In this document: in pieces, positions 7,713 to 27,770 of the stretch
Position numbering within the stretch: position 1 is the stretch's first letter
Layout of the letters: each line of letters opens with the position of its first letter
Assembly (NCBI RefSeq): GCF_044324785.1
Contig: NZ_CP172129.1
Strand: one strand, 5' to 3'
DNA from: Escherichia coli
GTDB taxonomy: Bacteria > Pseudomonadota > Gammaproteobacteria > Enterobacterales > Enterobacteriaceae
DNA: 64,000 nucleotides
Position numbers and translations under genes: made by a program
The notes under the pieces: model-generated
Told to the model about the DNA's origin: nothing
What the model saw: the letters and a program-made list of their open reading frames with translations, nothing else
Databases searched by the model: none

Positions 7713-7766
7713 TGAACCGCCCCGGGAATCCTGGAGACTAAACTCCCTGAGAAAGAGGTAAACAGG

Positions 7767-8093
7767 ATGACTAAAAATACTCGTTTTTCCCCCGAAGTCC
7801 GTCAGAGGGCGATTCGTATGGTTCTGGAAAGTCAGGGCGAATATGACTCACAGTGGGCGGCAATTTGTTCCATTGCCCCAAAGATTGGCTGTACACCGGA
7901 GACTCTGCGTGTCTGGGTACGCCAGCATGAGCGGGATACCGGAGGCGGTGATGGCGGGCTCACCACCGCTGAACGTCAGCGTCTGAAAGAGCTGGAACGT
8001 GAAAATCGTGAACTGCGCCGCAGTAACGATATCCTTCGCCAGGCTTCCGCTTATTTTGCGAAGGCGGAGTTCGACCGCCTCTGGAAAAAATGA
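7767..8093 (+). CDS. IS629 transposase OrfA
   Basis: 108-aa HTH protein [19 protein letters not shown]… matching IS629/IS1203 OrfA. Confidence 0.85.
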
Positions 8094-9117: not shown

Positions 9118-9835
<718 letters not shown>

Positions 9836-10412
9836 TTGATGGAGATATAAATGGCTCACTTTTTATCGGTTGTTGACGATACGTTTATCAAGTATACATG
9901 AAAATTTCTTCATACCAGCTATATGAGACGTTAAGACTAATAATCTTACTCCCAAAATGACTATGTTGTTGCAGTTTGGTTTATTGACTCTTGTCTATAG
10001 TTCACCGAATGCCAAGATGAGGGAGCGAGGAACTTTACTGTCTACGCCTCTCTTCCTGGTTACAAAGACAAGCGTAAAACTCACCATCCATTAGAACTAA
10101 AGGCACTTTCCTGAGCAGAGTTTTCATCTGCAAGATAAAAGCTATTTTACAGCCGTAAAGTCCAGTGAAACGAAAGAGAGGTTAGTGAATTAATTACTTG
10201 ATGTATTAAAGTATAATGGGCGTAGATAACACCTTAATACGAAATCTTGTCAGGCTTTCCCGGTAATTAGTAATACTGTTGAAACAAAGCGAGAGGGGGT
10301 TAGCCCAATTTACGCAAATAAATAATAATCTTGATTATGATTAATTCCAAATAAGTATATTTTTCCAGTAGATGCTGGGCATTAACTAAGAAAACCCAGA
10401 ATACCACTTTCA

Positions 10413-11621
10413 TTGTTATGGAAAACATGGACAATGTTAATGAAATATATTTCTCACCGCGCCATCATTTGTACCTTGACACTGTTGATCATTATTATCA
10501 CCGTTTTGTTCACCTTTCTGAGAAGCTCTGATGTGCCAGAATATATTACTGCCCCGGTGCGCAAAGGCGATATAGAAAATTCTGTTCTGGCGACAGGCCG
10601 TATTGATGCAATTGAACGGGTAAACGTAGGGGCACAGGTATCAGGGCAATTAAAATCACTGAAAGTGAAACAGGGCGACCATGTGACTAAAGGGCAGTTG
10701 ATTGCCGAAATTGACGACCTACCTCAGTGTAACGATTTGCGTAATGCCGAAGCTGCACTCAACGAAGTGAAAGCAGAACTTCAATCCAAGCAGGCGCTCC
10801 TGAAACAGGCTGAACTGCGTTTTAAACGCCAGCTCCGGATGCTAAGAGAAAATGCCAGCTCACACGAAGATTTTGAGTCTGCGGAGGCAATGCTTGCGAC
10901 CACTCGCGCTGAATTACATTCTCTGAATGCCAAACTGGTCCAGGCACAGATAGAAGTAGATAAGAAAAAGCTTGCCCTTGAATATACGCGAGTCGTAGCG
11001 CCAATGGATGGAATTGTTATTGCCATTGTCACTCAGCAAGGGCAAACCGTTAACTCAAACCAGAGTGCCCCAACAATTATTAAACTCGCTCGTCTGGATG
11101 TCATGACCATTAAAGCACAGATCTCCGAGGCTGATATAACCCGTATTTCTGTGGGGCAAAAAGCCCGCTTCTCTATCTTCTCCGAACCGGACAAGCACTA
11201 CAGCGCAACACTGCGTGCCGTTGAACTGGCACCAGAATCGGTAATGAAAGATGACTCTCTCGCCAGCAACACTTCAGCATCAGGCTCCGGAACTTCAAAT
11301 GCGTCCGTTTATTACAATGCTCTATTCGATGTGCCTAACCCAGAAAATCGACTTCGTATTGCCATGACTGCTCAGGTTACCCTGATTACTGATGAAGCCC
11401 AAAATACACTGCTGGTACCCATTCAGGCAGTGCACAGAAATGAGGGGAAGAAGCAACAGGTCCTGGTGCTGCCAGCAGATGGCAGGCTGGAACCCCGGAA
11501 TGTGAAAACTGGTATCACGAACAGCGTGGATATTCAGATCCTCGAAGGTTTAAATGTCGGAGAAAATGTCGTGCTGTCGCTGCCGGATAAGAAAGAGCCC
11601 GAAGAAAGGATTATGCTGTGA
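10413..11621 (+). CDS. etsA: EtsA, MacA-like periplasmic adaptor (HlyD/membrane-fusion family) of an ABC efflux system
   Basis: 402-aa ORF with N-terminal TM segment and coiled-coil adaptor architecture; first gene of a three-gene operon with 4-bp overlap to etsB. Confidence 0.8.
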   Translation: MLWKTWTMLMKYISHRAIICTLTLLIIIITVLFTFLRSSDVPEYITAPVRKGDIENSVLATGRIDAIERVNVGAQVSGQLKSLKVKQGDHVTKGQLIAEIDDLPQCNDLRNAEAALNEVKAELQSKQALLKQAELRFKRQLRMLRENASSHEDFESAEAMLATTRAELHSLNAKLVQAQIEVDKKKLALEYTRVVAPMDGIVIAIVTQQGQTVNSNQSAPTIIKLARLDVMTIKAQISEADITRISVGQKARFSIFSEPDKHYSATLRAVELAPESVMKDDSLASNTSASGSGTSNASVYYNALFDVPNPENRLRIAMTAQVTLITDEAQNTLLVPIQAVHRNEGKKQQVLVLPADGRLEPRNVKTGITNSVDIQILEGLNVGENVVLSLPDKKEPEERIML

Positions 11622-13558
11622 AAAAACTTATTGAGTTAAAAGGGGTTAGCCGAACTTATGGCAACGGAGATCAAACGCGGACCGTCCTGAAAAATGTCGA
11701 TTTGACAATCGTTGCTGGAGAAATGGTGGCAATCATTGGAGTCTCTGGCTCAGGCAAATCAACCTTAATGAACATAATGGGTTGCCTTGACGTACCCAAT
11801 AGAGGTGATTACTACATCGACGGACAAAATGCCGCCTGTCTTTCACCCGATGAGCTGGCTAGAGTGCGCCGGGAACACATTGGCTTTATATTCCAGCGCT
11901 ACCATTTGATACCTGATCTTAGCGCACTTGGTAACGTGGAGATCCCGGCCATTTACGCCAACAGCGAACGCGACAGCCGTCGGCAACGTGCAACGGCGTT
12001 GCTGGGCAGACTGGGACTGGAAGGACGTGAGCATCATAAACCTTGCGAACTTTCAGGCGGTCAGCAGCAACGCGTCAGTATTGCCCGAGCACTGATCAAC
12101 GGTGGAAAGATAATTTTGGCGGATGAGCCAACTGGTGCTCTGGATTCGCAATCCGGGCAAGAAGTGTTAGCCATTCTGAATGAACTTAATCGACGTGGTC
12201 ATACTGTAGTAATGGTGACCCACGATATGAAGGTCGCCCGGCACGCAAAGCGAATCATTGAGCTGTGTGATGGCGAAATCATCGCTGATAGTGGAGGTTG
12301 CGTATCTGCGACGGAAACACTACCAAAAACCAACAGAATCCGGCAAAGCTATTGGAAAACACTGCTCGATCGAACGCGTGAATCGATGCAAATGGCGCTA
12401 AAAGCGATGAAGACGCATCGCTTACGCACCACGCTTACCATGATCGGGATTGTTTTTGGTATCGCCTCCGTTGTCACTGTTGTGGCATTGGGTGAAGGAG
12501 CCAGGCAAGAAACACTGGAAGAGATTAAAAGTCTGGGGACAAACGTGGTCAGCATTTATCCCGGGCAGGATTTGTTCGATGACAGCATTGAGAGTATTAG
12601 AACATTGGTACCTGCTGACGCAAATGCACTGGCGAAGCAAGGGTTTATCGATAGCGTCAGCCCGGAAGTTAGCGCTTCAGACAACATTCGTTTTCTGGGT
12701 AAATCTGCGATAGCGTCCATTAACGGCGTTGGGCGGGAACATTTCCGGGTAAAAGGTATTGAGTTGTTGCAAGGGACTACTTTTAGAGACGATCGCAACG
12801 CTCTACAGGAAGTTATTATCGATGAGAATACTCGTAAGGCCATTTTCGACAACACAGGGTTACAGGCTCTGGGGCAAATAGTCTTTCTTGGTTCTGTACC
12901 AGCACGAGTGGTTGGCATCGCTAAAAGTAACAACCGTAGTGATGCATCAAATCGCATTACTGTGTGGATGCCTTACAGCACGGTGATGTACCGTATTGTG
13001 GGTAAACCAGTTCTGACCGGTATTAGCGTCAGGCTAAAAGACAATGTGGATAACGAGGCTGCAATCAGCGCTATCTCCCAACTATTAACCCGGCGTCACG
13101 GCATAAAAGACTTCCAGCTTTATAACTTTGAACAAATAAGAAAGTCTATCGAACACACCTCAATGACCTTCAGTATTTTAATTCTTATGGTCGCATGTAT
13201 CTCACTAATGATCGGCAGTATCGGGGTGATGAACATCATGTTGATTTCTGTAACGGAACGAACTCATGAAATTGGCGTACGAATGGCGGTTGGCGCGAGA
13301 CGCAGCGACATTATGCAACAGTTTATTATTGAGGCCGTATTGGTTTGCCTGATTGGTGGCGCACTCGGTATTGCACTGTCGTATATCACAGGTGCGCTCT
13401 TTAACGCTCTGGCGGACGGGATATTCGCAGCTATATATTCGTGGCAGGCTGCTGTTGCTGCATTTTTTTGCTCAACCTTAATCGGCATAATCTTCGGGTA
13501 TCTCCCAGCCCGCAAGGCAGCAAGGATGGACCCGGTTATTTCACTGGCCAGCGAATAA
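11618..13558 (+). CDS. etsB: EtsB, MacB-like ABC transporter (N-terminal ATPase fused to permease)
   Basis: 646-aa ORF with Walker A GVSGSGKST, ABC signature LSGGQQQR and C-terminal FtsX-like permease region. Confidence 0.85.
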   Translation: MKKLIELKGVSRTYGNGDQTRTVLKNVDLTIVAGEMVAIIGVSGSGKSTLMNIMGCLDVPNRGDYYIDGQNAACLSPDELARVRREHIGFIFQRYHLIPDLSALGNVEIPAIYANSERDSRRQRATALLGRLGLEGREHHKPCELSGGQQQRVSIARALINGGKIILADEPTGALDSQSGQEVLAILNELNRRGHTVVMVTHDMKVARHAKRIIELCDGEIIADSGGCVSATETLPKTNRIRQSYWKTLLDRTRESMQMALKAMKTHRLRTTLTMIGIVFGIASVVTVVALGEGARQETLEEIKSLGTNVVSIYPGQDLFDDSIESIRTLVPADANALAKQGFIDSVSPEVSASDNIRFLGKSAIASINGVGREHFRVKGIELLQGTTFRDDRNALQEVIIDENTRKAIFDNTGLQALGQIVFLGSVPARVVGIAKSNNRSDASNRITVWMPYSTVMYRIVGKPVLTGISVRLKDNVDNEAAISAISQLLTRRHGIKDFQLYNFEQIRKSIEHTSMTFSILILMVACISLMIGSIGVMNIMLISVTERTHEIGVRMAVGARRSDIMQQFIIEAVLVCLIGGALGIALSYITGALFNALADGIFAAIYSWQAAVAAFFCSTLIGIIFGYLPARKAARMDPVISLASE

Positions 13559-13561
13559 TAT

Positions 13562-14932
13562 ATGAAAATTTTATCATCGTTGACTTTATGCCTTATCACC
13601 GCACTCTGTTCAGGTTGCACAAACGTGCTGAAAAGTGACTATCGCGCTCCCGAAGTGAACTATCCCATCAACTGGACCAAGGGCGATGTGGACGGAAATA
13701 CATCCCCGTTTGACTGGGAAGAATTTAACGATCCTAATCTCGATAACTGGCTTCACCTGGTGATGACAAGTAATAACGACATAGCTATAGCTGCACTGCG
13801 GATACATCGGGCGCAGCTGGATGCGGAAAGAACAGGTATCACCAATACTCCTGCACTAAAGGCGGCACTGAGTATGGACGGAAAAAAACAGCTGAATAAC
13901 TCGTCCGGCTGGGCAAAAAGCGGTTCTGCCAGCCTTGGCACCAGCTATGAGCTGGATCTCTGGGGAAAAATTGCCCGTCAGCGTGATGTTGCTGAGTGGG
14001 CAGTCCATGCCAGTGAAGAAGATTTTCGCTCCGCGCGCCTGATGCTGCTTTCAGAGGCCAGCAATAATTACTGGCGTATCGGTTTTGTAAATCAACAAAT
14101 TACCACCCTCCAGCAGAGTATTGACTATGCAAAAGAGACGCTGCGTCTGGCCGAGGTTCGCTATCGTGCAGGAAATATCTCGTCGCTGGATGTGATTGAC
14201 GCGCAGCAAAACCTGCTCACGCAAGAGAACCAGCTTACAGGGCTACAACGAGAACATTCACAGCTACTCAATCAGCAGGCCGTTTTGCTCGGCACCGTGC
14301 CCGGTTGCCAGATAGTCGAGCCCACAACGCTGCCAAAAGGAAGCCTGCCTAAGGTCAATGCGAATATTCCTGCCAGCATACTGATGCGCCGGCCTGACAT
14401 AAGTGCTAAAGAGTGGCAGTTGCGTGAGGCGCTAGCTACGGTTGATATCAAGCGTAGCGAATATTACCCCACCTTCAACCTGACAGGCGCTTTGGGTACC
14501 AGCAGCGCTTCGCTACTGGCATTACTGCATAATCCGGTCGGTTCCGTAGGCGCTAACCTGACGCTACCGTTCCTGGAGTGGCGACAGCGGGACATAGAGG
14601 TAAAAATTGCCCGTAACGATTACGAACAGCGAGTGCTGGAGTTTAAACAGCTACTTTATAAGGCAATGAGCAGTATAGAGGACGCGCTTTCATTTCGTAA
14701 CCAGTTGCTGCTTCAGGAGACAAGACTCAGGGAAGAACTGGAACTTGCACGTAAGTCAGAGTGGTTAAACGAAGTTCGTTACCGGCATGGTGCAGTACGT
14801 ATTTCATTCTGGCTTGATGCTCAGGAAAAACGTCGTCAGGCGGAGCTGCGACTGGATGAAAACCGCTTCAATCAGTTGCAGAATCTAGCAAAAATTTATC
14901 TTGAGTTTGGCGGGGCATCAACCTTTCCTTAA
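13562..14932 (+). CDS. etsC: EtsC, TolC-family outer-membrane efflux protein
   Basis: 456-aa ORF with lipoprotein-like signal (…LCSGC…) and outer-membrane factor repeats. Confidence 0.8.
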   Translation: MKILSSLTLCLITALCSGCTNVLKSDYRAPEVNYPINWTKGDVDGNTSPFDWEEFNDPNLDNWLHLVMTSNNDIAIAALRIHRAQLDAERTGITNTPALKAALSMDGKKQLNNSSGWAKSGSASLGTSYELDLWGKIARQRDVAEWAVHASEEDFRSARLMLLSEASNNYWRIGFVNQQITTLQQSIDYAKETLRLAEVRYRAGNISSLDVIDAQQNLLTQENQLTGLQREHSQLLNQQAVLLGTVPGCQIVEPTTLPKGSLPKVNANIPASILMRRPDISAKEWQLREALATVDIKRSEYYPTFNLTGALGTSSASLLALLHNPVGSVGANLTLPFLEWRQRDIEVKIARNDYEQRVLEFKQLLYKAMSSIEDALSFRNQLLLQETRLREELELARKSEWLNEVRYRHGAVRISFWLDAQEKRRQAELRLDENRFNQLQNLAKIYLEFGGASTFP

Positions 14933-15254
14933 GTCTAATTGGGGACAACCAGGAGCAATAAGGAGTGAAAAATAGCCACAGCTGAAAACACCATAGCCAT
15001 TGACATTTGAGCTTTACCTGCTCTTGAAAACAAAAAATCACTGTTAAGCGCAATGCTATTCACTTCAGCAGAGCAGTATTGCGTGTCACGAGCATGTTTA
15101 CCATTCTGTGTAAATATCTTTTCTTAAAAGTGATCATCAAAGCAGTCATCAAACTCGATAAATATCCACCGGCATAGCGTAATGCCGAGCAATTAAGGAT
15201 CAATTGACCGCTCCTTAAACTGCGGCACTATAACGGCTTCTACAACAGGGAGCC

Positions 15255-15633
15255 GTTTTCTTGTGCATAGAAAACCCCCAGCTAGGCTGGGGGTTCCGGA
15301 AAGCTTTCAGCTTTGAGCCAGTTATTAAAACCCCTTTTGATTTGTTAAAACACCTTGCGGTCTGGCAACTGCAAGTGTCAAACAAGAAATCAAAAGGGGG
15401 TCCCAATGGGGAACGAAAAGAGCTTAGCGCACACCCGATGGAACTGTAAATATCACATAGTATTTGCGCCAAAATACCGAAGACAGGTGTTCTACAGAGA
15501 GAAGCGTAGAGCAATAGGCTGTATTTTGAGAAAGCTGTGTGAGTGGAAAAGTGTACGGATTCTGGAAGCTGAATGCTGTGCAGATCATATCCATATGCTA
15601 CAATGTTTGTCAAAGCTCAGTGAAAATGTCTAA
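15255..15633 (+). mobile_element. IS200 remnant: left-end hairpin plus the first ~75 codons of tnpA (15406-15633), 3' truncated
   Basis: Hairpin CCCCCAGCTAGGCTGGGGG followed by an ORF MGNEKSLAHTRWNCKYHIVFAPKYRR… matching IS200 TnpA, which diverges after …ADHIHML. Confidence 0.75.
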
Positions 15634-15728
15634 TCACTGGCTCATTATAAATGTCCATATATTGAAAAGGCCGCTGCGAAAATCCCTCCCGCAGCGGCCT
15701 CTTTAGCATAACGTCATTATGCGAACCA

Positions 15729-16670
15729 TCACTTAATGTTCTTCTCGCATTTTAAGAGAAATAGTAAATTTGTAGCAGTAAGATGAAGCATATAGCTTAC
15801 CAATTCTTCCGGAACCTCTTTAATATCAGCTCCTTGCCCATGACCTGCATTTTTGTTTCTGATGGTTGGAATTCCTGTTTCCAGCATTGTTTTCAGACTT
15901 GTGAACTGGCTTTGTAAATATGCCGGAATTAAATTTTGACTTAAACAGCTATTTATTAGTTTTGATGCTGTATCATTAGGACTATATTTCCAGTTATTCT
16001 TATCATGTATTGCTTTCATTATACTTTCAAATGATTTCAGACAATCATTTAGACATTCTTTATAACGCTTATGCCTGTAATGCTCATGCGCAGCAAGGAA
16101 TTCATCATTGGCGCCTTCAAACAAGGGTTCTCCACTTAAAAGAATCAGGGTTGGCTTTACGACATCAGCATGAATCAATTGAGAGTCTATCCTTATTATC
16201 TCTTCAGATTCAAACTGATAACCAACCCCATGTTCTCTAAACCTTTCATTTAGTTCAATAACTGCATCTCCAGGACTTTGACTTGTTATGTCTTTGAATT
16301 CATAATGGTTTTTCGCAACGTGGCTCACTAGTATCTGGAAGCATATTTCTATGAAATCTAGGCATTTCTCTGTATTTCTCTCTTTAAGGAAAAAGTCGAC
16401 AAGAGCGTCAAAGTCATTCTTTGCAAATTCCTTCAAAGAAAAAACACCATATTCCTTAGAAAGTATCTCATGGATATATGCATATACTTTGTCAGCTTCA
16501 TTTCTATACGATGTGTAGCGTTCATTAGAAGAGGGGAAGCCGATAGAATCAGTTATTATTTTAATTATTTGCACCCTGAGTGCATGTGGAATATTGTTAT
16601 ATTGATATACGTCATTTACTTCGCCACGAATTTTTCTTTGTCTCTTAGAATAAATATTAATAATTGCCAT
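15729..16670 (-). CDS. AbiJ-like protein with a C-terminal HEPN-type motif; candidate abortive-infection/defence gene
   Basis: 313-aa AT-rich ORF; C-terminal R-x5-H motif (IRNKNAGHG) typical of HEPN RNase domains; sits between IS remnants. Confidence 0.5.
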   Translation of the reverse strand: MAIINIYSKRQRKIRGEVNDVYQYNNIPHALRVQIIKIITDSIGFPSSNERYTSYRNEADKVYAYIHEILSKEYGVFSLKEFAKNDFDALVDFFLKERNTEKCLDFIEICFQILVSHVAKNHYEFKDITSQSPGDAVIELNERFREHGVGYQFESEEIIRIDSQLIHADVVKPTLILLSGEPLFEGANDEFLAAHEHYRHKRYKECLNDCLKSFESIMKAIHDKNNWKYSPNDTASKLINSCLSQNLIPAYLQSQFTSLKTMLETGIPTIRNKNAGHGQGADIKEVPEELVSYMLHLTATNLLFLLKCEKNIK

Positions 16671-16904
16671 GAAATAGCCTCAAGATTTTTTTACATGCTG
16701 TTCTGTGATACTTGCTGTTTGGCTCTTTGCACCGCGAAGCGGTTCGGGGTTCTGTGACACCCGAATTTTACCTCGGTTTCCTTTGTATATAATATCATTG
16801 AAGTTATTTGCATTTCTCAGAAATCTTCTCTGGCTTTGATTGCAATAGCCGAAAGATAGCGCACACATCGCCGTTGGTCAGTTAGTACGAGGTTTCCGCC
16901 AAGT

Positions 16905-18294
16905 TCACCTTTTACCAAAGATGGCCTCAGAGCTTCCCTGAAGCTTTATCATGGCTTCAAGTAGGTCATCTTCGTTCAGTGAGCGCTGAGATTTGTTGAT
17001 GCTAGGGGCGTGCCGTCTGCGGGAAGGCTCATCACCAGAACAAGGTAACGATTGTGAGCGATTATTGTCCCGTTTTCTCTGGACCTGACGGGCAACATCC
17101 AACACATGGCCAAGTCTCTTGTTATCTACAATGGCGACGGGATCAACCTCAGAAAGCCGGTCATAGGTGGAGTAGGGCAGCAGCACGCCATTTAGTCGCA
17201 GCTCCTTATGTCCGTCAGGATAATGCCAGACATCAATATACTTGCCGATGGCTCTTCGACTGTACTCGTTGTCCTCAATCAGATAGAGCATTTTATCGTA
17301 TTGTACAGTCAGATTTTTTGATACCCGGCGAGGCTCTCGCTAGGTAAATTCTGCATCAAGGTCATCGTCTAATGCCTGCGGCCGGTGCGCGTTAAAATCA
17401 TGCAAGGGTTCTTTGGCAAAGCGCCGGTTATAATCCTTCTGCAAATGCATTGGCCGCTTCTATTGTACAGATCCCCTTAAGCCTGAGCTCCTTAACGAGT
17501 CGGTCCTGAAGTGTCAAATGAGCACGTTCAACGCGGCCTTTTGCCTGGCTGGTTTCAGCACACAAAGGAGTAATATTAAGGCAGCGCATGGCCCTGGCAA
17601 ACTGGGTTTCGCCGGGGCCGGTGGTGGCGTGCTTATTATTGACTCTGAATACGCTGGCTTTATCGCTGTAGAGGATCATCGGTTTACCGTATTTCTCGAT
17701 ATAGCCACGTGTAGCTTCAAAATAGGTAAATGTGGACTCAGATTTCACAAACAGCAGGTGCATCAGGCGACTGGTGGCATCGTCAACATAGACCAGGGCA
17801 GAACAGGGTCGACCCCGGTTTTCAAACCAGTGGTGGTCGCAGCCATCAATTTGTATCAGCTCGCCAGTACAAGGACGCCGGTAACGAGGCTGATGAATTT
17901 TCGGTGCGCGTTGTCTGCGGGGAATCCAGAGTCCGGCCTTTATCATGAGACGTCGGATGGTTTCCTTTCCAAGGACCAGACCGTGAACTTCCTCCAGCTT
18001 TTCCCGCGCTAGCGTGGGGCCAAAATCACGGTAGTGCTCCCGGATTATACTGAGTGCCTGATCTGTCAGTGACGCTGGCAACAGACGGTTACCAGTGCGG
18101 CCACGACTCTGGTTGTTCATGCCAAGCGGCCCATACTGGCGATAACGTTTGAGCAGACGGCTGCAATGACGTGGCGTGATGCCCAGCATTTCGGCAGCCT
18201 GTCCAGGACGGATATTGCGATCGATGACATCCTGAAGGATTTTGAGGCGATTGATTTCTTTCACGGTGAACATTCCGGCGTCATTTATAGCCAT
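16905..18294 (-). pseudogene. DDE transposase (HTH plus integrase-core rve domain, IS481/ISNCY-like), split into two ORFs
   Basis: ORF 17428-18294 carries the HTH and DDE core (…LIQIDGCDHHWF…YSDKASVF…); ORF 16905-17291 is the C-terminal continuation in another frame. Confidence 0.55.
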
Positions 18295-18589
18295 AGAAAA
18301 CTCCTCATCAGGAAAAAGTGAGTCGTTGTCTAGACATAGGGATCTGAGAAACTATAGCCTGGACATTCCTAATGAGCCACAAATAGACATTAGCATTGAG
18401 CCTCTACAATGTTTGTGCGCACAATCTATCTTATGTTAAATAACATTGAATATTAACTTACTTCATGAAGCTTACTGCTTCTATTTCCACTTCTTTTTCT
18501 TATTAATCGCTCCCCTAATCCACGCATTCATCTGCTCTACAGGCTCTAAAATATTTTTTCTGAGTACTGAGCACAAACTGCTCCATAAA

Positions 18590-18800
18590 AAACAGACCAC
18601 AAGTTTGGGCATGATACTGATGTAGTCACGTTTTATTGTTTTCATGAAGCTCTCTGCTATTCCATTACTCACCGGACTCCGCACCGCCGTGTTCTTCGAT
18701 TTAAGTCCCAACATCCGAGCGAACTGGCGTGTTTCATTAACCCGGTAGTCAGAGTCAGCGGTCGAAAGACCTCCCAGGTAGCTACTCTGCATACCCACTA
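18590..18800 (-). mobile_element. IS2 fragment (3' part of insD)
   Basis: Minus-strand translation …[45 protein letters not shown]… matches IS2 InsD; DNA near-identical to 21510-21700. Confidence 0.7.
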
Positions 18801-18930
18801 TAATGCAACTATTCTCGTGACGTGTGTTTCAGCTCTCCCCCGGCTATGATACGAGATGGTATGGAGAGCCCTTCTGGGGCCACTGCCTGCACCAGATGCA
18901 ACAGGAAGCCTGATATGAATGCAATTTCTG

Positions 18931-20124
18931 TCAGGACAGGCGGGTAACTTTCTGTGGCCATGGATCAGGGAATACTCCACCCGACATCCACCACTGAATT
19001 TCTTCTTCAGTCAACAAGCAAAGGGATAAGGCATGTGTAAAATCATTAACTTCAGTGGCATTGCCAATGATAGTCAACTGACAGCAGCGATCGCCAAATC
19101 GCCCAGAGGCTGTGTCGATGTGTCGCTGTAGCGCTGAACGTTCTTCACGAGTTAAATTATTGTCAGTATGTTCCAGTACTCCAGCTTTCCAGTAGCCAAT
19201 GAGCGCCAGACTGATGCTTCCTGCTGACTGATTCCAGAGCAGGGCAAGATCATCTCTCCCGGGGAGCCAAAAAAAACCTTTACTGCGATAAACGCCCATG
19301 CCCATAAAGCGGTGACAGGTATCCCATAATCTTTGCGGATGGAATGGCCTGTCGTCCCTGATGACGCGCCATATAAGTTCCTCATTGTTGCACGGAGTAT
19401 CCATGTTTCCTACAAGTGCTTCCAGTTCACTGATGAGTAACTCAACACGGTCAAAATTGTAGTCCGGGATCGCCAGTAATGTGCTCAGTTCAATATTTCC
19501 CCATGATACCGCGAGCACATCCACGGAGGGGTTAAGTGGGTGTATGGCTTTTGCCACAGCGGAGATAATGTCAAAGGGCAGGCGGTCATTTCTGGTCAGC
19601 AGCAGCCTGTTGCAGAACATGATTTGCTCGGCCAGCAAATTCTCCAGGCCGCGTTTGTTATGCCGGAGATTTTCCTGAAGAGTGGGGATCAGTTTTTTCC
19701 CATCATTGTAATCTTCATGGAGCATGACAGTATCAACGAGTGTTAAAAACGCCTTCAGGCGTACACGTGAATGGCGACGCAGGTATTTGACCAGAGGAAG
19801 CGGATGACTGCTTCCGGAGGTTTCAATCAGCATCACATCCGGCTTGTTGTGATCAAGCAGGTGGTTAATTGCGAGATCCATCTTTTTGAGGCCTGCGGGG
19901 CTGCTGATGCTGTCTGCGGTGATACTTACGAAATTATTGTCTTTTGCATCTACAATATCTGTGTTGGCGATCAGCACGCCGTCCACATCCAGTTCGCTCA
20001 TGTCATTGACTATGACAGAGACTGAAAGCTGTTTTTCGTGTGCCTGTATGAGCAGGTTTTTCAGCAGAGTGGTTTTCCCTGCGCCGAGGAAGCCATTGAG
20101 AATGATGACAGATGTTGTTTCCAT
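18931..20124 (-). CDS. CobW/COG0523-family G3E GTPase (putative metallochaperone)
   Basis: P-loop GFLGAGKTT near the N-terminus (start taken at METTSVIILNG…) plus a CobW-like C-terminal domain; the 435-aa ORF in the track has an N-terminal extension unlikely to be translated. Confidence 0.65.
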   Translation of the reverse strand: METTSVIILNGFLGAGKTTLLKNLLIQAHEKQLSVSVIVNDMSELDVDGVLIANTDIVDAKDNNFVSITADSISSPAGLKKMDLAINHLLDHNKPDVMLIETSGSSHPLPLVKYLRRHSRVRLKAFLTLVDTVMLHEDYNDGKKLIPTLQENLRHNKRGLENLLAEQIMFCNRLLLTRNDRLPFDIISAVAKAIHPLNPSVDVLAVSWGNIELSTLLAIPDYNFDRVELLISELEALVGNMDTPCNNEELIWRVIRDDRPFHPQRLWDTCHRFMGMGVYRSKGFFWLPGRDDLALLWNQSAGSISLALIGYWKAGVLEHTDNNLTREERSALQRHIDTASGRFGDRCCQLTIIGNATEVNDFTHALSLCLLTEEEIQWWMSGGVFPDPWPQKVTRLS

Positions 20125-20869
20125 ATCAGCAGTACACCAGTTAGTTAGCGAGGAAGGCGCTTGGTGGTACAAAGAGCATCCGGATTGAATCGCATAACGT
20201 CGACGGGAGTTGTTGTCGTTTTTCCTGTGAGGTCTCAACCTGCCACAGAACGCACCGGACTTATTGGTATTTAGTCTCCATCAGCATAATTATCACCATT
20301 TTTATCTCCGGGGGAAGATTTGTTCTGAACAGGAGTGGGAGGTGTGACCTCCTGAAAGTAATTACAGATTGCTAGTTGTTGTATTTTTATTCGAATATGT
20401 CTCTTCGTATCAGTGATAGCACCTAGATAAAGTATATTCCGGGAGCGTTATCTGTTCTAGATATCAGAGAGTCAGTCATTTGTAAAAAAGAGAGCTGCAT
20501 CATTCTATTTTTCCTGTCTATTCACCCTGTTGTCGTATCTAAAAGACATCCGTTCCGAGGATGTCGGGCACCCGTTCTGTACTAAGATACATAGCTTTTG
20601 GGTCTGCACTATTTGGAACCGACAGAAGTCTGTCTGTGATATCCGCATTTTTCTGTGTGCGATATATTCCGAAAAACTTCAAACCACTTAAAAGAGGTGT
20701 TTCCGGAGGATAAGTTCGACCAGGGAATAGTGTTTCCTGGTAAGTGTGGCGGAGCCAGTTCACCAGGAGTATCTTTCTTATCCAGTTATACTGGATTTTA
20801 TTAGATGATCACCCTACCCTGCAGCAGTACGCTGACGGTGTTTTTTTGGGAGAACCATTATGAATAACG

Positions 20870-21336
20870 TCATCTTTGATTGGTATTTATCTAGGCAAAA
20901 ATTCATTCAACGTCCACTGCCAAGATGCAACAGGCAGAGTCCTTAACTGTCAGAATCCAAGTGCTCGAAATTATTCGAATTCCTTACTAATTCCTCCTAC
21001 ACAACTATTGTTATGGAAGCTTGCGAAGATGCTCACTATATGGCACGGAAATTTTCGGAAATGCGTCATAAAACAAAGCTAATACCTCCTCATTTTGTCC
21101 AACCCTTCGTTAAAATTAATAAAAATGATTTCTTTGAGGCTGAAACCATATGTGAAGTTACATCAAGCCATCAATGAGATTTGTAGCATTAGGAGCTGAA
21201 TCCCAGCAGAGGATTCCACTTTTCATCCGTCGTTGACAATGGCCTTGAAAAACGCCGTTACTCACCGTTCTCCTTCACGGTAATACGCAGTTATAGTTGC
21301 AGAGCAATGTAATGGATCTTTTATATTAAGAAATTG
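20870..21336 (+). pseudogene. IS110-family transposase N-terminal fragment, frameshifted and cut by IS2
   Basis: Frames give MNNVIFDWYLSR…/…GIYLGKNSFNVHCQDATGRVL…/…KLIPPHFVQPFVKINKNDFFEAE… resembling the N-terminal domain of IS110-family transposases; ends at the IS2 terminus. Confidence 0.4.
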
Positions 21337-21347
21337 TGGATTTGCCC

Positions 21348-22253
21348 CTATATTTCCAGACATCTGTTATCACTTAACCCATTACAAGCCCGCTGCCGCA
21401 GATATTCCCGTGGCGAGCGATAACCCAGCGCACTATGCGGATGCCATTCGTTATAATGCTCGAACGCCTCTGCAAGGTTCTTTGCTGCCGTTAACCCGTC
21501 TGGTTTGGGCATGATACTGATGTAGTCACGCTTTATCGTTTTCACGAAGCTCTCTGCTATTCCGTTACTCTCCGGACTCCGCACCGCCGTGTTCTTCGGT
21601 TCAAGCCCCAACATCCGGGCAAACTGCCGTGTTTCATTAGCCCGGTAGCATGAACCATTATCCGTCAGCCACTCTACTGGAGACGCCGGAAGCTCGTTGC
21701 CGAAGCGGCGTTCCACCGCTCCCAGCATGACGTCCTGTACTGTTTCACTGTTGAAGCCGCCCGTAGTAACCGCCCAGTGCAGTGCCTCACGGTCACAGCA
21801 GTCCAGCGCGAACGTGACTCGCAGTTTTTCTCCGTTATCACAGCGGAACTCGAACCCGTCAGAGCACCATCGTTGATTGCTTTCTTTCACGGCCACTTTG
21901 CCAGTATGTGCCCGTTTCGATGGCGGTACAGCGGTTTTTCGCTCAAGCAACAGCGCATTCTGGCGCATGATCCGGTAAACACGTTTGGCATTGATCGCAG
22001 GCATACCATCAAGTTCGGCCTGTCTGCGAAGCAGCGCCCATACCCGACGATAACCATACGTGGGCAGCTCTCCGATAACATGGTGTATACGGAGAAGCAC
22101 ATCCGTATCATCTGAGTGACGGCTGCGGCGACCATCTTTCCAGTCATCGGTTCGTCTGAGAATTACGTGCAACTGCGCACGCGACACCCGGAGACAACGG
22201 CTGACTAAGCTTACTCCCCATCCCCGGGCAATAAGGGCGCGTGCGCTATCCAC
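21348..22253 (-). CDS. insD: IS2 transposase InsD
   Basis: 301-aa ORF matching IS2 InsD ([30 protein letters not shown]…). Confidence 0.9.
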
Positions 22254-22576
22254 TTTTTTGCCCGTCCATATTCAACGGCTTCTTTGAGGAGTTCATTTTC
22301 CATCGTTTTCTTGCCGAGCAGGCGCTGGAGTTCTTTAATCTGCTTCATGGCGGCAGCAAGTTCAGAGGCAGGAACAACCTGTTCTCCGGCGGCGACAGCA
22401 GTAAGACTTCCTTCCTGGTATTGCTTACGCCAGAGAAATAACTGGCTGGCTGCTACACCATGTTGCCGGGCAACGAGGGAGACCGTCATCCCCGGTTCAA
22501 AGCTCTGCTGAACAATTGCGATCTTTTCCTGTGTGGTACGCCGTCTGCGTTTCTCCGGCCCTAAGACATCAATCAT
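22211..22576 (-). CDS. insC: IS2 InsC (HTH transposase-associated protein)
   Basis: [30 protein letters not shown]… matches IS2 InsC; the track ORF includes an upstream extension. Confidence 0.85.
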
Positions 22577-23187
22577 CTGTTCTCCAATGACTAGTCTAAA
22601 AACTAGTATTAAGACTATCACTTATTTAAGTGATACTGGTTGTCTGGAGATTCAGGGGGCCAGTCTAAGGTGCACGAATCCTAGAGGCAGAATGTTTCTC
22701 CACATGCTTGTGGAGAAACCGCCGCATTTTGCCCGTTCTGTACGATACACCGTAGCCAGAGATAAGATATTCTGTTGCTGTATGCTACATACATTACACT
22801 ATACGAAATCAGGTCTGTTCAATCAGTAAGGAAATAAACGGACAAACGTTATGTAACCCAGACAGAGATATATTGTCTGGGAAAATAGTGGCTTTTGTGG
22901 CGAAAACTAGTAAAACAGCAACCCGAACCACTTGATGTGCATCGTTTTTGATTATTCCCGTATACTCTTGCAGAAGGAGTTCTCCGTCGGGCTACTGTCA
23001 TGGTTAATGCGGGGAATATGGCGACAATACAACACACCTAAAAGAGTAATGGACAGATGAAGCGGTTTATTCATTTCCCATGATTCTGAGTACCTACCAA
23101 GTCTGAGTAACCACTTTTATACTTTTAATTTTCGTTCATTTAGCTATCGTTTAATTATTATCACATAGGATTCTGCCGTTTTTAACA

Positions 23188-23496
23188 ATGCAGGATAATA
23201 AGATGAAAAAAATGTTATTTTCTGCCGCTCTGGCAATGCTTATTACAGGATGTGCTCAACAAACGTTTACTGTTGGAAACAAACCGACAGCAGTAACACC
23301 AAAGGAAACCATCACTCATCATTTCTTCGTTTCGGGAATTGGACAAGAGAAAACTGTTGATGCAGCCAAAATTTGTGGCGGTGCAGAAAATGTTGTTAAA
23401 ACAGAAACTCAGCAAACATTCGTAAATGGATTGCTCGGTTTTATCACTTTTGGCATCTATACTCCGCTGGAAGCCCGGGTATATTGCTCACAATAG
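23188..23496 (+). CDS. iss: Iss (increased serum survival) lipoprotein, Bor family
   Basis: ORF MQDNKMKKMLFSAALAMLITGCAQQ… with lipobox; matches Iss/Bor; start may be the MKKML methionine at 23203. Confidence 0.9.
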   Translation: MQDNKMKKMLFSAALAMLITGCAQQTFTVGNKPTAVTPKETITHHFFVSGIGQEKTVDAAKICGGAENVVKTETQQTFVNGLLGFITFGIYTPLEARVYCSQ

Positions 23497-23533
23497 TTGC
23501 CCATCGATATGGGGAGCTCATCTGCACTGTTCA

Positions 23534-23792
23534 TTAATATACTTCTGGGCTCCCTACAGTTGTTTTTGCATAGTGATAAGCCTCTCTCTGAGGGAGGAAA
23601 TAATCCTGTTCAGCGATGTCTGCCAGTCGGGGGGGCTGCATTATCCACGCCCGAGGCGGTGGTGGCTTCACGCGGGGATGGGCAGATTGATCTGATATGC
23701 AACCGACGACGACCAGCGGCAACATCATCACGCAGAGCTTCATTTTCAGATTTGGGCCACCTTTTGATTTCTCGTTTAACTTTTGCAGTCAC
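23534..23792 (-). pseudogene. Lambda-type lysis-cassette remnant: Rz (i-spanin) C-terminal fragment with embedded Rz1 (o-spanin) lipoprotein ORF
   Basis: Minus-strand ORFs …GRRRLHIRSICPSPREATTASGVDNAA… (Rz-like) and MKLCVMMLPLVVVGC…KPPPP…WIMQPP… (Rz1-like, proline-rich lipoprotein) in overlapping frames, as in lambda. Confidence 0.65.
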
Positions 23793-24355
23793 CAGACTGT
23801 GATTTATTTTAACAAATCAATAGCTTTCATAAAATTCTCGAAGCTGAAAGCTTAACTGAACCAACCAGCCTGGCTGGTGTTTTCTAAAGACAAAAAGGCC
23901 ATCAGCAAAACACTGATAGTCTGAATCACCTTTATCAATCATGTATGAAGAAAATATGCGCAATTAGTTGACAGTGATTATCATTTTCATTAAAAAGAGC
24001 GCGTAGCATTCTTATTTCATGAGGAAATTTACCCGCCAACAACCTGAGTAGCGAAAGCTGTTCATCCCCAATATTTTTGCTGGCGGGTTCTTTTTTCTAC
24101 TGTCCTCCTCCCCAGAGGAAGCATTCCCATTAATCATTACTGGCGAGGAGGCAAGAGAAAAAGTCGGTTCTTTGTCCCTAAATAACAGCATCATTTCAGT
24201 CCATGCAAAATCTGATTTACCAGCTCACATAATAACCTGATGATACACAGTGTAAGTTCACAGAGATATTGCAATTGCCTCCGGATAAGTAAGGGGAGAT
24301 TGCACTATGCAAATGCAGCACCTGAGGTTGGCTATCCTAAGCAGCCGATTATGCG

Positions 24356-25406
24356 TTGAGGCTTTCAGTGATGGCTGATATAGCAACAATGAGAATGAAG
24401 GCTCTGCACTTCTGGGATAAACACGGTATTTCTGCAGCTTCTGAAGCCTTTGGCGTATCCTGCCGCACGCTTTACTGGTGGCGTCAGTTACTGATCAAGG
24501 GAGGACCTGAGGGGCTAATCCCGCACAGTAAGGCACCTCTGGTGCGACGAAAAAAGCACTGGCATCCCGATGTGCTGAAAGAGATTCGACGCCTCAGGAC
24601 AGAGCTGCCGAACCTCGGTAAAGAGCAGATTTTTGTTCGCCTGAAGCCCTGGTGCGCATAACGCCATCAGACCTGCCCGAGTGTTTCCACCATCGGCAGA
24701 ATGATCGCCACCGCACACGATAAAATGCGGATGATACCAGTACGTCTGAGCTCGCGGGGTAAGGCTCTGCTTGTCAAAAAGCGAACCACCACCCCCCCGC
24801 AGGCCAAAGCACTACCGTCCGGTAAAGACAGGAGAGCTCATTGGGATGGACGCCATTGAGCTCAGAATGGGTGAAATGCGTCGCTATATCATTACCATGA
24901 TCGACGAACACAGCGATTATGTACTGGCGCTGGCTGTGCCGTCGCTCAACAGTGATATCGTCAATCACTTTTTCAGCCGTGCAGCCCGGCTGTTCCCTGT
25001 CGGTATCAGCCAGATCATCACAGATAACGGGAAAGAGTTCCTGGGAAGCTTTGACAAAACGCTGCAGGAAGCCGCCATCAAACACCTCTGGACCTATCCC
25101 TACACGCCAAAAATGAACGCTATCTGTGAACGTTTTAACCGGGCATTAAGAGAGCAATTCATTGAATTTAATGAAATTTTACTCTTTGAGGATCTGGCGT
25201 TGTTTAACCTGAAACTGGCGGAATATCTGGCGCTGTATAACAGCAAAAGACTCCACAAGGCGCTCGCACTAACGACGCCCGTGGAATATATTTTAAAAGA
25301 GAACAAAAATTGCAATATGTGGTGGACCCATACACAGCAAACGCACAGGCCGCCCCGGTTGGGTAGATATGTGGGATGGCTGGTTCAGACTTCAGGATAT
25401 GGTTGA
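24356..25406 (+). pseudogene. Integrase-core (DDE) transposase, IS481-family-like, interrupted
   Basis: N-terminal HTH ORF 24356-24661 and DDE-domain ORF 24771-25406 (…ITDNGKEF…YTPKMNAICERFNRAL…) separated by a frame break. Confidence 0.55.
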
Positions 25407-26171
25407 GGCTGGTGATGAAGTCTCTTTATCAGGAGATCTGATCAAGAGACAGCCGCGCAGGGGGATTCACTATGCTGGATTCTTTTAACAAATTCTCCGC
25501 TAACCAAAAAATAGACTTTTTGCATTCGTAAATGCGTTAAGAGATAATTTTTAAAGTTCCATCAATCTCCCGGCCAGTTCGTCTCGCGGCATTACTCACT
25601 ATCCGCACAACTTCAGTAAGATCATGACTTTTTCAATCGTTATCTGTTGACCAAGCTTTGAAACCACTAGCGTCCCGTCAACCTGACCTGGAATCGTCTA
25701 GAACCGCCCATAGTTGTGAATTGGCTAGAGTGTGATGGAAAGCAACGCTAAACGACCTAGTCACACATTCTCTTTTCCCTAACAATGACCATTTAGTGAA
25801 ATAACGTATCCAAAATGATGACGTGAAAGCCTGATACTGGCAGCGAAAAGCCGAAAAAACTCACCTGGTCAGGAGCAAAAATCGGATTATTCGCCAACAG
25901 CGTAATATCAGCAGTAGTTCTCGACACGCTTGCGCTATAGACAGAGGATGAAACGCTGCTGGTCGGAGTTCTCTATACATTTTTGGCGACGGCAGAACCG
26001 CTCACCAATGCCTTAACGTCTATCAGCCTTCCGGTGAGTTGGAACAGCATGCTCAGCGTTTGCAAGATATTCTCCACGGTCTGTAGCAGCGTAGGTTTCA
26101 ATTTAAATATCCCCAGATAGCCCTCTGGGAGCTTCCCTTTTTATTAAGTTTTAATTACCGTTGCAATAGTT

Positions 26172-26200
26172 AAATGATATTGGTAATTATTATCATTAGC
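26172..26200. promoter_or_regulatory. Possible Fur box upstream of iroB
   Basis: AAATGATATTGGTAATTATTATCATTAGC resembles the Fur consensus GATAATGATAATCATTATC; about 440 bp from the iroB start, so weak. Confidence 0.3.
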
Positions 26201-26641
26201 ATTTGTGTCTGTGTTGTTTCTGGTAAGGCTGAAAGGGAACAAACATCGCCTGTACAACGGCGTTTTTACTTACAGACCAGCGAAGGCGAGACTATCAGGA
26301 TGATGCATCGTGTGTCTAAGAAATCACGGTTCTTTCCAGATTCGTTGTTCGGTCTAACACTGCACAAATGCGTCAGAACATCCCGGCGTAGCTGTCCGAC
26401 GCCATTTGGGCTGTTCAACAGGACAATGGCGCGTAAGCGTTAATGGAAGTGGGGATACGGAGTTCCCTGTTCACCTGTGTATGTCACGGAAAAGTCTCTG
26501 ACTGAGCTGTCCATAACGCTGGTGAAGCACAAATGGCGCAGCATCTGGTAAAGCAGGTTTAACGAAAAGTCGTGTCCTGCTGCTGGCATATGAGTGCGTC
26601 GACTGCCTGATTTAGATCGTCAAGCGGAGAGGGATTTTCTC

Positions 26642-27757
26642 ATGCGTATTTTGTTTGTAGGCCCGCCTCTCTATGGGCTGTTGTATCCTGTGCTGTCTCT
26701 GGCGCAGGCATTTCGCGTTAACGGTCATGAAGTGCTGATCGCCAGTGGAGGACAATTCGCACAAAAAGCGGCAGAGGCCGGGTTGGTGGTGTTTGACGCC
26801 GCACCCGGTCTGGATTCCGAAGCTGGTTACCGCCACCATGAGGCACAGCGGAAAAAAAGTAATATCGGAACCCAAATGGGCAACTTCTCATTCTTCAGCG
26901 AAGAAATGGCCGACCATCTGGTGGAGTTTGCCGGACACTGGCGGCCTGACCTCATCATCTACCCTCCGCTCGGAGTCATCGGGCCGCTGATTGCCGCCAA
27001 ATATGATATACCGGTCGTGATGCAAACCGTAGGCTTCGGCCATACCCCCTGGCATATCAAGGGTGTAACGCGTTCGCTCACGGACGCCTATCGTCGCCAC
27101 AATGTGGGGGCCACACCACGTGATATGGCCTGGATCGACGTAACACCGCCGAGTATGAGCATTCTGGAAAACGACGGTGAACCCATTATTCCGATGCAGT
27201 ACGTCCCGTATAACGGTGGCGCGGTGTGGGAACCATGGTGGGAGAGAAGGCCCGAGCGTAAACGTCTGCTGGTGAGTCTCGGCACTGTCAAACCGATGGT
27301 TGACGGCCTTGATCTAATCGCCTGGGTTATGGATTCTGCCAGTGAGGTCGATGCCGAGATCATCCTGCATATTTCAGCCAATGCGCGGTCCGATTTGCGC
27401 TCGCTGCCGTCAAATGTTCGCCTGGTTGACTGGATACCCATGGGTGTCTTCCTCAACGGCGCAGATGGTTTCATTCATCATGGCGGAGCAGGCAATACCC
27501 TGACAGCGCTACACGCTGGTATTCCACAAATCGTCTTCGGCCAGGGAGCCGATCGCCCGGTAAATGCCCGCGTTGTTGCCGAACGCGGCTGCGGGATTAT
27601 CCCTGGCGACGTCGGCCTGTCGAGTAACATGATCAATGCTTTCCTCAACAATCGCTCACTTCGCAAAGCCTCTGAAGAGGTAGCAGCGGAAATGGCGGCG
27701 CAACCCTGCCCAGGTGAAGTGGCGAAAAGCCTGATCACAATGGTACAGAAAGGGTAA
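26642..27757 (+). CDS. iroB: IroB, enterobactin C-glucosyltransferase (salmochelin synthesis)
   Basis: GT1-family glycosyltransferase (MRILFVGPPLYG… HHGGAGNT); first gene of the iroBCDE operon; start taken at MRILFVG. Confidence 0.9.
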   Translation: MRILFVGPPLYGLLYPVLSLAQAFRVNGHEVLIASGGQFAQKAAEAGLVVFDAAPGLDSEAGYRHHEAQRKKSNIGTQMGNFSFFSEEMADHLVEFAGHWRPDLIIYPPLGVIGPLIAAKYDIPVVMQTVGFGHTPWHIKGVTRSLTDAYRRHNVGATPRDMAWIDVTPPSMSILENDGEPIIPMQYVPYNGGAVWEPWWERRPERKRLLVSLGTVKPMVDGLDLIAWVMDSASEVDAEIILHISANARSDLRSLPSNVRLVDWIPMGVFLNGADGFIHHGGAGNTLTALHAGIPQIVFGQGADRPVNARVVAERGCGIIPGDVGLSSNMINAFLNNRSLRKASEEVAAEMAAQPCPGEVAKSLITMVQKG

Positions 27758-27770
27758 CCACTACACCTTC

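Follow-up and report, generated by a model that had tools for sequence, protein, structure and literature searches.

An intact COG0523 GTPase lacking the CXCC site is probably an orphaned hitch-hiker at the ets-iss junction of ColV-type virulence plasmids

Positions 15255-22667 of a 64,000-nucleotide stretch of Escherichia coli DNA (contig NZ_CP172129.1; the whole stretch is referred to as the window) comprise remnants of several insertion sequences (IS) and two cargo genes, one of which (18931-20124, minus strand) encodes an intact GTPase of the COG0523 family, 397 amino acids (aa) in length. We conclude, with a probability of about 0.68, that this GTPase, though intact, is a hitch-hiker orphaned at an IS-scarred junction within the virulence region of ColV plasmids. 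A preliminary description of the segment had proposed the protein to be a zinc metallochaperone that could contribute to metal homeostasis in the host. The family link to zinc limitation turned out to be real and stronger than that description could know, with orthologues residing in predicted Zur-controlled zinc-starvation islands. In contrast, nothing specific to the ColV copy points to a contribution to zinc homeostasis in the host: the protein lacks the CXCC metal site, no Zur box precedes its gene, its pS88 counterpart was not induced under the conditions reported, and homology to the island genes begins only at the start codon.

Over its full length, the segment is found at 99.8% identity on hundreds of E. 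coli and Salmonella virulence plasmids of the IncFIB/FIC ColV/ColBM type, pECOS88 (pS88) and that of E. coli strain ATCC 11775 among them, in line with the earlier assignment to a virulence plasmid. Indeed, the window is colinear with both of these plasmids, in the case of ATCC 11775 (NZ_CP033091.2) at identical coordinates. RefSeq annotation places the etsABC efflux operon (10434-14932) on one side of the segment and iss (23203-23496), followed by the iro locus, on the other, and the segment most likely represents the IS-scarred boundary where the ets operon meets the iss/iro modules within the conserved virulence region of ColV/ColBM plasmids.

The GTPase corresponds to pS88137, the ‘putative GTPase’ of pS88. 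Its classification as a COG0523/CobW-type protein was confirmed by Pfam matches to both the cobW and the CobW_C domain, the latter (PF07683) scoring 54.8 bits, and its motifs are not degenerate, with Walker A (G1; GFLGAGKTT), Walker B (G3; DVMLIETSG) and RxKG all intact. In an alignment of 55 family sequences, the Walker core residues G11-G14, G16-T19 and E101-G104 were invariant—including G14, K17, E101, T102 and G104—as were H107 and the R280-S281-K282-G283 arginine finger. A 2026 preprint (PMC13001444) describes RxKG as the arginine finger of COG0523 C-terminal domains, in which no other motif is invariant. In the G4 motif, the plasmid protein has TRND instead of the family consensus TKND (Lys present in 97% of members), and Asp180 is kept. 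AlphaFold2 modelling based on 55 homologues (pLDDT 88.2, pTM 0.83) predicted a two-domain, YjiA-like fold; the top Foldseek matches of this model in the PDB were three YjiA structures (4ixn, 1nij and 4ixm; E 4e-15 to ~1e-15), followed by HypB and UreG. Family models placed the protein outside the named subgroups, with 200.2 bits for ZigA (NF038288; cut-off 600), 80.2 bits for CobW (TIGR02475; cut-off 332.1) and 48.4 bits for NF008578 (cut-off 361), which is described only as ‘GTPase’ and which we take to be a YjiA-type model. No cob genes were found in the region of the window or in the neighbourhoods of orthologues.

What the plasmid GTPase lacks is the CXCC metal site, a motif present in all COG0523 members according to Haas et al. 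2009 and invariant in all COG0523 proteins studied according to the MigC paper. This zinc site is the hallmark of ZigA, YjiA, YeiR and ZNG1. The corresponding position reads D71-S72-I73-S74, pairwise alignment with YjiA sets the GCICC sequence of the latter opposite the cysteine-free NFVSITADS, and the sole cysteine of the G-domain is C171. The same holds for the clade to which the protein belongs, as CXCC was absent, with zero or one cysteine in that region, from all 72 family members. Judged by its sequence, which offers none of the canonical thiolate ligands, the plasmid protein cannot be a CXCC-type zinc chaperone. Four other potential metal ligands, namely H107, H262, C348 and C369, are at least 95% conserved among these 72 members.

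A protein search delineated a tight family of ~400-aa proteins, 50-70% identical, in Kosakonia, Klebsiella, Pectobacterium, Pantoea, Erwinia, Brenneria and other genera, and a genome scan extended the clade at 45-52% identity to marine Bacteroidota, Planctomycetota, Lentisphaeria and others; overall, orthologues of the plasmid GTPase are 47-70% identical across many bacteria. When plasmids were searched with tblastn, 544 carried a copy of at least 99% identity (mostly E. coli and Salmonella) and 688 a copy of 60-80% identity (mostly Klebsiella). In Kosakonia and Klebsiella, the GTPase gene is divergent from a 150-aa Fur-family gene, and downstream follow genes for a Cys-poor DksA paralogue, for FolE2 (GCHY-1), for proteins of the hexapeptide-repeat and PTPS/QueD-like types and for a paralogue of ThrRS. 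The neighbourhood further includes a paralogue of CysRS, a flavoprotein, a FeoB-like protein, znuA, another Fur-family gene and a second COG0523 gene, this one with CXCC. This is the setting of a classical Zur-regulon island of zinc-sparing paralogues as in Haas et al., who had also noted a zinc-island copy, i.e. a Zur cluster, on the Klebsiella pneumoniae virulence plasmid pLVPK (Haas et al. 2009; PMC2770081). Across the 34 Enterobacterales loci used for context counts, dksA2 lay downstream in 22, a second CXCC-bearing COG0523 gene was present in 12, folE2 in 10 and a divergent Fur-family gene in nine. Recurrent neighbours in the marine loci comprised MerC-like proteins, the same flavoprotein family, other COG0523 genes, hisI2 and flavodoxin.

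Position weight matrices for gamma-type and beta-type Zur boxes, built from the sites in Additional file 5 of Haas et al., were then used to scan the orthologue loci. A Zur-type operator (at least 15 bits) was found within 135 base pairs (bp) upstream of 21 of 33 enterobacterial orthologues, 12 of these sites being gamma-type and nine conforming to TGCAAC-N5-TTGCA, a box listed for beta-proteobacteria by Haas et al. 2009 and occurring here where the Fur-family gene is divergent. In the Kosakonia and Klebsiella islands, operator sites map to 7951-7973 and 12364-12386 of locus L004 and to 7952-7974, 15346-15368 and 15377-15399 of locus L005. Gamma-type boxes in these islands precede dksA2, the flavoprotein operon and hisI2-yciC, and the TGCAAC-N5-TTGCA box precedes the CXCC-less GTPase gene as well as the ThrRS paralogue and znuA; the Klebsiella island has a TTATTGCAACTTGATTGCATTAA site besides its gamma-type boxes. 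The island Fur-family proteins (150 aa and 160 aa) score well below the cut-off for E. coli Zur. The second operator type where the Fur-family gene is divergent, together with the presence of two Fur-family proteins, suggests that the island may carry its own Zur-like repressor with its own regulon. From this context we infer that, in its native islands, the clade acts as a GTP-driven accessory of the zinc-limitation response, without zinc at the canonical thiolate site.

Little of this setting has reached the ColV plasmids. Nucleotide homology of the plasmid gene to its Kosakonia and Klebsiella counterparts extends from 20125 to 18923, i.e. over the coding sequence only. Comparison of the flanks with 80 orthologous loci by blastn, blastx and tblastx returned no match, and tblastn of the window revealed no remnants of Fur-family, DksA2, FolE2 or CysRS2 proteins. 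The sequence 5′ of the gene (20125-20872) was seen only on ColV-type plasmids. No Zur box was detected in 20101-20900, where the best gamma-type and beta-type sites scored -4.4 and 1.6 bits as compared to training minima of 13.2 and 22.3 bits, so that the search for a Zur box upstream of 20124 that the preliminary description had called for was negative. Likewise, the 800 bp upstream of the gene contained no Fur box, the best site having at least six mismatches; elsewhere in the window, Fur-box-like sites with two to three mismatches occur, several of them in the siderophore-locus part. A simple consensus scan identified no sigma-70 promoter upstream of the gene, and a terminator-like hairpin is found there on the minus (coding) strand at 20565-20545.

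Published expression data for the pS88 copy agree with the missing operator. The pS88137 transcript was detected by quantitative real-time PCR (qRT-PCR) and was not induced in iron-chelated LB, human serum or urine, with fold changes of 0.40, 0.52 and 0.64, respectively, and of 1.59 in urine in vivo; in the same experiments, siderophore genes rose 15- to 350-fold (PMC3438092). The gene is carried by 643 of 5426 complete E. coli genomes (~12%), nearly always located on a plasmid and in no case below 99% identity, which fits a single recent acquisition and spread. The encoded protein deviates from the family at five columns that are at least 90% conserved (family median, one), all of these being conservative changes, and its mean identity to the marine out-group (46.9%) falls within the range of the chromosomal orthologues (43.6-48.8%). 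Accelerated decay of the plasmid copy was considered and rejected, as the protein is full length and its out-group identity is mid-range among the orthologues.

In the scenario that we favour, a clade gene natively situated behind a Zur-type operator, beside a Fur-family repressor and before dksA2, folE2 and other zinc-sparing paralogues would have been captured by a ColV plasmid as a coding sequence only. With operator, regulator and partner genes lost, transcription of the GTPase gene would stay unresponsive to metal-poor host fluids. We infer that it is mainly a hitch-hiker of the virulence module that brings its host no benefit, rather than a zinc-regulated fitness factor. Several points weigh against this scenario. 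The clade could bind metal at another site, with H107, H262, C348 and C369 as candidate ligands, and the K178R exchange in G4 might weaken guanine binding. A hidden promoter or operator, or read-through from neighbouring IS elements, is possible given that the consensus scans are crude. The pS88137 conditions were iron chelation, serum and urine rather than TPEN or calprotectin and are thus not zinc-specific. Finally, that 643 genomes keep the gene at 99% identity or more would likewise be compatible with selection.

The strongest competitor, which we regard as possible at well below even odds, is that the GTPase is a functionless relic, an intact-looking open reading frame (ORF) that persists through the recent spread of the plasmids and receives background transcription only. 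All 648 records from E. coli show 99% identity or higher, leaving no time for decay, and the gene has no recognisable promoter, a terminator-like hairpin upstream, no regulation that was seen and surroundings made of dead IS elements; K178R in G4 and the five deviations at conserved columns, where the family median is one, point the same way. What a relic would not readily explain is that the protein is full length and keeps all 66 invariant columns of the alignment (55 sequences, the plasmid protein among them), that its out-group divergence is typical of chromosomal orthologues, that a transcript is detected, and that the GTPase gene is kept more often than the neighbouring AbiJ-like gene (643 versus 382 genomes). 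Considerably less probable is that the GTPase is a genuine zinc metallochaperone like ZigA, YeiR and YjiA, which zinc limitation induces and which helps plasmid-bearing E. coli against zinc withholding by the host. The absent CXCC motif and PETEEY linker, a ZigA score of 200 bits where 600 are required, the lack of a Zur box upstream and of induction in serum or urine, and the missing island partner genes all argue against such a function, even though the protein belongs to COG0523, has ZigA as its best NCBIfam match and has orthologues in Zur-controlled islands, one of which is located on a Klebsiella virulence plasmid, and even though the ColV plasmid is itself rich in metal-acquisition systems.

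A broader proposal, doubtful as well if slightly less so, is that the CXCC-less clade, which spans E. coli plasmids to marine Bacteroidota and Planctomycetota at 47-70% identity, is predicted to be Zur-controlled in its native islands, mostly lies immediately upstream of dksA2 and retains the GTP switch and arginine finger, forms a functionally distinct COG0523 class. Such a class would either use another metal site (H107, H262, C348, C369) or serve in the zinc-starvation response as a regulator or adaptor free of metal; selection in zinc-poor host niches could then lie behind its separate occurrence on ColV plasmids and pLVPK, the two major virulence plasmid lineages of enterobacteria, with constitutive expression on ColV. 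By far the least probable is that the AbiJ-like gene and the GTPase gene are two halves of one defence system split by IS insertions. Both genes do lie in the same IS-bounded stretch, PADLOC reported a weak candidate for the AbiJ-like protein, and the P-loop of the GTPase gave weak STAND-NTPase matches below the cut-off; in none of 83 orthologous loci, however, is an AbiJ-like gene found next to the GTPase gene, the two occur independently in E. coli (643 versus 382 genomes), and the PADLOC matches of the GTPase are to the P-loop only, at E ~1e-3. The split-system reading is effectively refuted by this context analysis, and a defence role of the GTPase was rejected, its PADLOC signal amounting to P-loop noise. 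The orphaned hitch-hiker remains the reading that we prefer.

The consequence for annotation is practical. Since the GTPase has neither the metal site of its family nor zinc regulation, it should not be read as a zinc chaperone from its family name, and with the gene present in ~12% of complete E. coli genomes, that name alone is no ground for labelling it a zinc chaperone or a virulence factor. For the plasmid the outcome is negative; for the protein family it is mildly positive, as it reveals a conserved CXCC-less COG0523 clade in zinc-starvation islands, where the COG0523 literature consulted holds CobW3 as the single published exception to the CXCC rule. Within a known kind of protein, the clade is a variant of modest interest, and it provides a natural test of what a COG0523 GTPase does without zinc at the canonical site. 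In addition, some zinc islands appear to hold a Fur-family repressor of their own and a second operator type.

Several side observations concern the clade. The only neighbour common to enterobacterial and marine loci (15 loci) is a Pyr_redox_3 flavoprotein of ~372-376 aa whose C-terminus is Cys-rich; its gene maps to 4770-5900 in L004 and 4786-5916 in L005 and adjoins the GTPase gene in L063, L064, L068, L075 and L086. It is often followed by a gene for a 94-aa membrane protein or, in enterobacteria, for a FeoB-like protein. On the basis of this co-occurrence, the flavoprotein is a possible functional partner of the clade. The one Pseudomonas member that was located (P0053) resides on a plasmid-like contig and not in a dksA2-yciC-DUF1826 cluster (cf. 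subfamily 11 of Haas et al., PA5532). A Pseudomonas graminis contig (L089), plasmid-like with Rep3 and ParA/ParG, encodes a 59% identical GTPase at 7001-8194 among toxin-antitoxin genes. A Peptidase_M24 gene, methionine-aminopeptidase-like, lies 1.7 kb downstream of the GTPase gene on L089; methionine aminopeptidase is a known client of eukaryotic ZNG1. Finally, contig SFGN01000100.1 (6866 bp), labelled ‘MAG: Lachnospiraceae bacterium’, is 100% identical at the protein level to the ColV region including the GTPase and its flanks, and is almost certainly a mis-binned E. coli plasmid fragment.

Apart from the GTPase gene, the window contains a strong gamma-type Zur-box palindrome, TTTATGTTACTTTATAACATAAC, at 7313-7335, which scores 24.5 bits (training median, 25.3) and is followed in rank by a 17.2-bit site at 2592. 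The palindrome lies ~38 bp upstream of an unannotated 87-aa ORF (7012-7275, minus strand) with a hydrophobic N-terminus and without a Pfam match, located between ompTp and IS3-family remnants. A 500-bp segment containing it occurs in 724 of 5426 E. coli genomes and bears no annotated feature. To judge from this site, a Zur-controlled locus on the plasmid may lie here, and not at the GTPase gene.

The other cargo gene (15729-16670, minus strand) encodes a 313-aa AbiJ-like protein with an N-terminal AbiJ_NTD4 domain (PF18863; 86.8 bits, cut-off 34), which substantiates the earlier AbiJ-like label for the N-terminal half, and a C-terminal DUF7014 domain (210.7 bits). NCBIfam classifies it as STM4504/CBY_0614 (NF046078; 431.7 bits), and some RefSeq records name it ‘abortive infection family protein’. 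Its C-terminal domain contains RNKNAGH, an Rx5H string resembling the Rx4-6H motif of HEPN proteins; a Pfam scan gave no match to a HEPN model, that domain being assigned to DUF7014. The PADLOC candidate was PDC-S32 (E 4e-9). Judged by its domains, it is probably a stand-alone abortive-infection-type (HEPN-like) protein. The gene is present in 382 of 5426 complete E. coli genomes. Plasmid pAMM lacks pS88142/143 and carries the GTPase gene (PMC3438092); judged by gene order, pS88142/143 probably include the AbiJ-like gene. The different carriage of the two cargo genes (643 versus 382 genomes), the pAMM pattern and the fact that they are never neighbours in orthologue loci indicate them to be unrelated passengers, and the AbiJ-like gene is an independent, separable one. 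Just 3′ of its stop codon lies an inverted repeat (15650-15718; 29-nt arms, 76% complementary) that may act as its terminator.

IS-derived sequence makes up, by our estimate, ~57% of the 7.4 kb and the two cargo genes ~29%. The IS elements and both cargo genes listed in the preliminary description were all recovered at or close to where it had placed them, with homology statistics above chance. At the left end, an IS200C remnant (15255-15650, plus strand) retains the left end of the element and the first ~65 tnpA codons, the 3′ part missing. Its 5′-UTR RNA, STnc490, is recognised at 15273-15396 on the plus strand (Rfam RF01405; 146 bits, E 1e-30), and the shortened tnpA at 15406-15600 is annotated by PGAP as ‘IS200C family transposase, incomplete’ (NF033573, 66.5 bits; Pfam Y1_Tnp), all of which supports the IS200 remnant proposed earlier. 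STnc490 is an Hfq-binding RNA. A second IS200 5′ end (STnc490, 91 bits) was observed at 23761-23882 on the minus strand, i.e. inverted relative to the first, and everything from the AbiJ-like gene through iss to the Rz/Rz1 remnants lies between the two ends. A recent composite transposon formed by the ends at 15.3 and 23.8 kb was ruled out: being only ~76% identical, they derive from two different IS200-family elements rather than a recent pair. An Rfam scan of 14500-24500 yielded only these two STnc490 copies, and no riboswitch or IS110-associated RNA family. The Rz1 and Rz spanin pseudogene remnants (23580-23792) adjoin iss and mark another module boundary of the mosaic; they would fit a derivation of iss from a lambdoid bor region.

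Between the two cargo genes, an ISNCY transposase pseudogene (16905-18294, minus strand) is split by a frameshift and a stop into 17428-18294 and 16905-17291 and labelled ‘frameshifted; internal stop’ by PGAP. The split and the ISNCY affiliation (NF033594; 382 bits, cut-off 250) agree with the preliminary description, which had called the element IS481/ISNCY-like, whereas the IS481 part did not hold (94.8 bits, cut-off 224). The IS2 fragment was confirmed as a diverged IS2-like sequence (18481-18798, minus strand), whose ORF represents part of the OrfB C-terminus (positions 190-270 of NF006918, IS2 TnpB) and which matches IS2 at the DNA level only over the 146 nt of 18603-18748 (92% identity to 21503-21648). 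Upstream of the GTPase gene, at approximately 20873-21209 on the plus strand, lies an N-terminal fragment of an IS110-family transposase that corresponds to residues ~5-117 of 334, contains two frameshifts and is without PGAP annotation. It was recognised by NF033542 (E 1.9e-9) and by tblastn with an E. coli IS110 transposase (61% identity); the closest E. coli IS110 transposases are 66-70% identical to it at the DNA level, and no intact parent element was found among them. The fragment had been described as truncated by an intact IS2. Both elements are present, but truncation by IS2 is not demonstrable, because the IS110 homology ends ~127 bp before IS2, at a spacer (21210-21336; 127 bp) for which short matches (88-97%) exist at other E. 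coli sites, including one beneath a gene for a PerC-family regulator.

The IS2 element itself (21337-22667, minus strand) is complete, as had been noted, with exactly 1331 bp, both terminal inverted repeats and orfA/orfB with their programmed frameshift; PGAP labels it ‘IS3-like element IS2’. It is flanked by AATTG and AGGTG, i.e. without a 5-bp target-site duplication, which points to a later rearrangement (recombination or deletion) rather than to a defective element. Across 9255-28667, 20 single-nucleotide polymorphisms separate the window from NZ_CP033091.2, and 17 of these fall inside the IS2 copy, a concentration that likewise suggests later recombination or deletion. It seems that recombination swapped the copy at this site for a different IS2 variant. 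Successive IS insertions and deletions would have stranded the two unrelated passenger genes in the ets-iss junction. The IS mosaic itself is ordinary, and the region is well known and already annotated as part of ColV virulence plasmids.

Both cargo proteins were compared with known systems. Like lactococcal AbiJ, the AbiJ-like protein combines an N-terminal AbiJ_NTD4 domain with an Rx5H string in its C-terminal domain that is reminiscent of HEPN; it differs in that the C-terminal domain is DUF7014 and not the HEPN_AbiJ model, and NCBI files it as STM4504/CBY_0614. As for the GTPase, a parallel in terms of location is the pLVPK Zur cluster (Haas et al. 2009), which harbours a 67% identical orthologue on a virulence plasmid that also has iro and iuc siderophore loci. 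The pLVPK island is complete, with a Fur-family regulator, dksA2-folE2-cam, hisI2-yciC, znuA and operators, whereas ColV plasmids have the coding sequence only. E. coli YjiA and YeiR share the fold, YjiA being the best match among solved structures; both possess CXCC, and their sequence match to the plasmid protein is confined to the G-domain (E 1e-9).

CobW3 of Cupriavidus metallidurans (Rmet_0125) is likewise a Zur-regulon COG0523 protein without an internal GCxCC site (PMC11340326). However, its sequence, rebuilt from a supplementary alignment, is only 26% identical to the plasmid GTPase (82 bits), as compared to at least 47% within the clade across phyla. CobW3 has lost the entire switch I/metal-site segment and has a degenerate Walker B, while the plasmid GTPase keeps switch I; and CobW3 binds metals via a His-rich C-terminal tail, in place of which the plasmid GTPase ends in FPDPWPQKVTRLS. 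Equating the clade with CobW3 was hence rejected, given the 26% identity and the different lesion.

The YciC/ZagA/ZigA group (subfamily 1 of Haas et al. 2009; cluster 1 of the sequence similarity network, SSN) has the same two-domain G3E layout, an identical Walker A, a VNDMSE-type switch I and an ExxG Walker B. The C-terminal motifs RPFHPxR (RPFHPQR), RSKG-FFW (RSKGFFW), CLLTxxE and DPWP are common to the clade and the YciC/ZagA/ZigA/CobW1 group, and clade orthologues reside in Zur-regulated islands, often beside a true YciC/ZigA paralogue. Yet the clade and the YciC-type paralogue of the same island share only 28% identity, CXCC has become D-S-I-S on the plasmid and C-x-L-S in marine members, and the Glu of GxSEP is replaced by the invariant H107. 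The plasmid GTPase, which falls far under the cut-off of the ZigA model, has MDTPCNNEELIW where the PETEEY linker would be. The clade thus defined lies next to the YciC/ZigA type, with its CXCC zinc site replaced.

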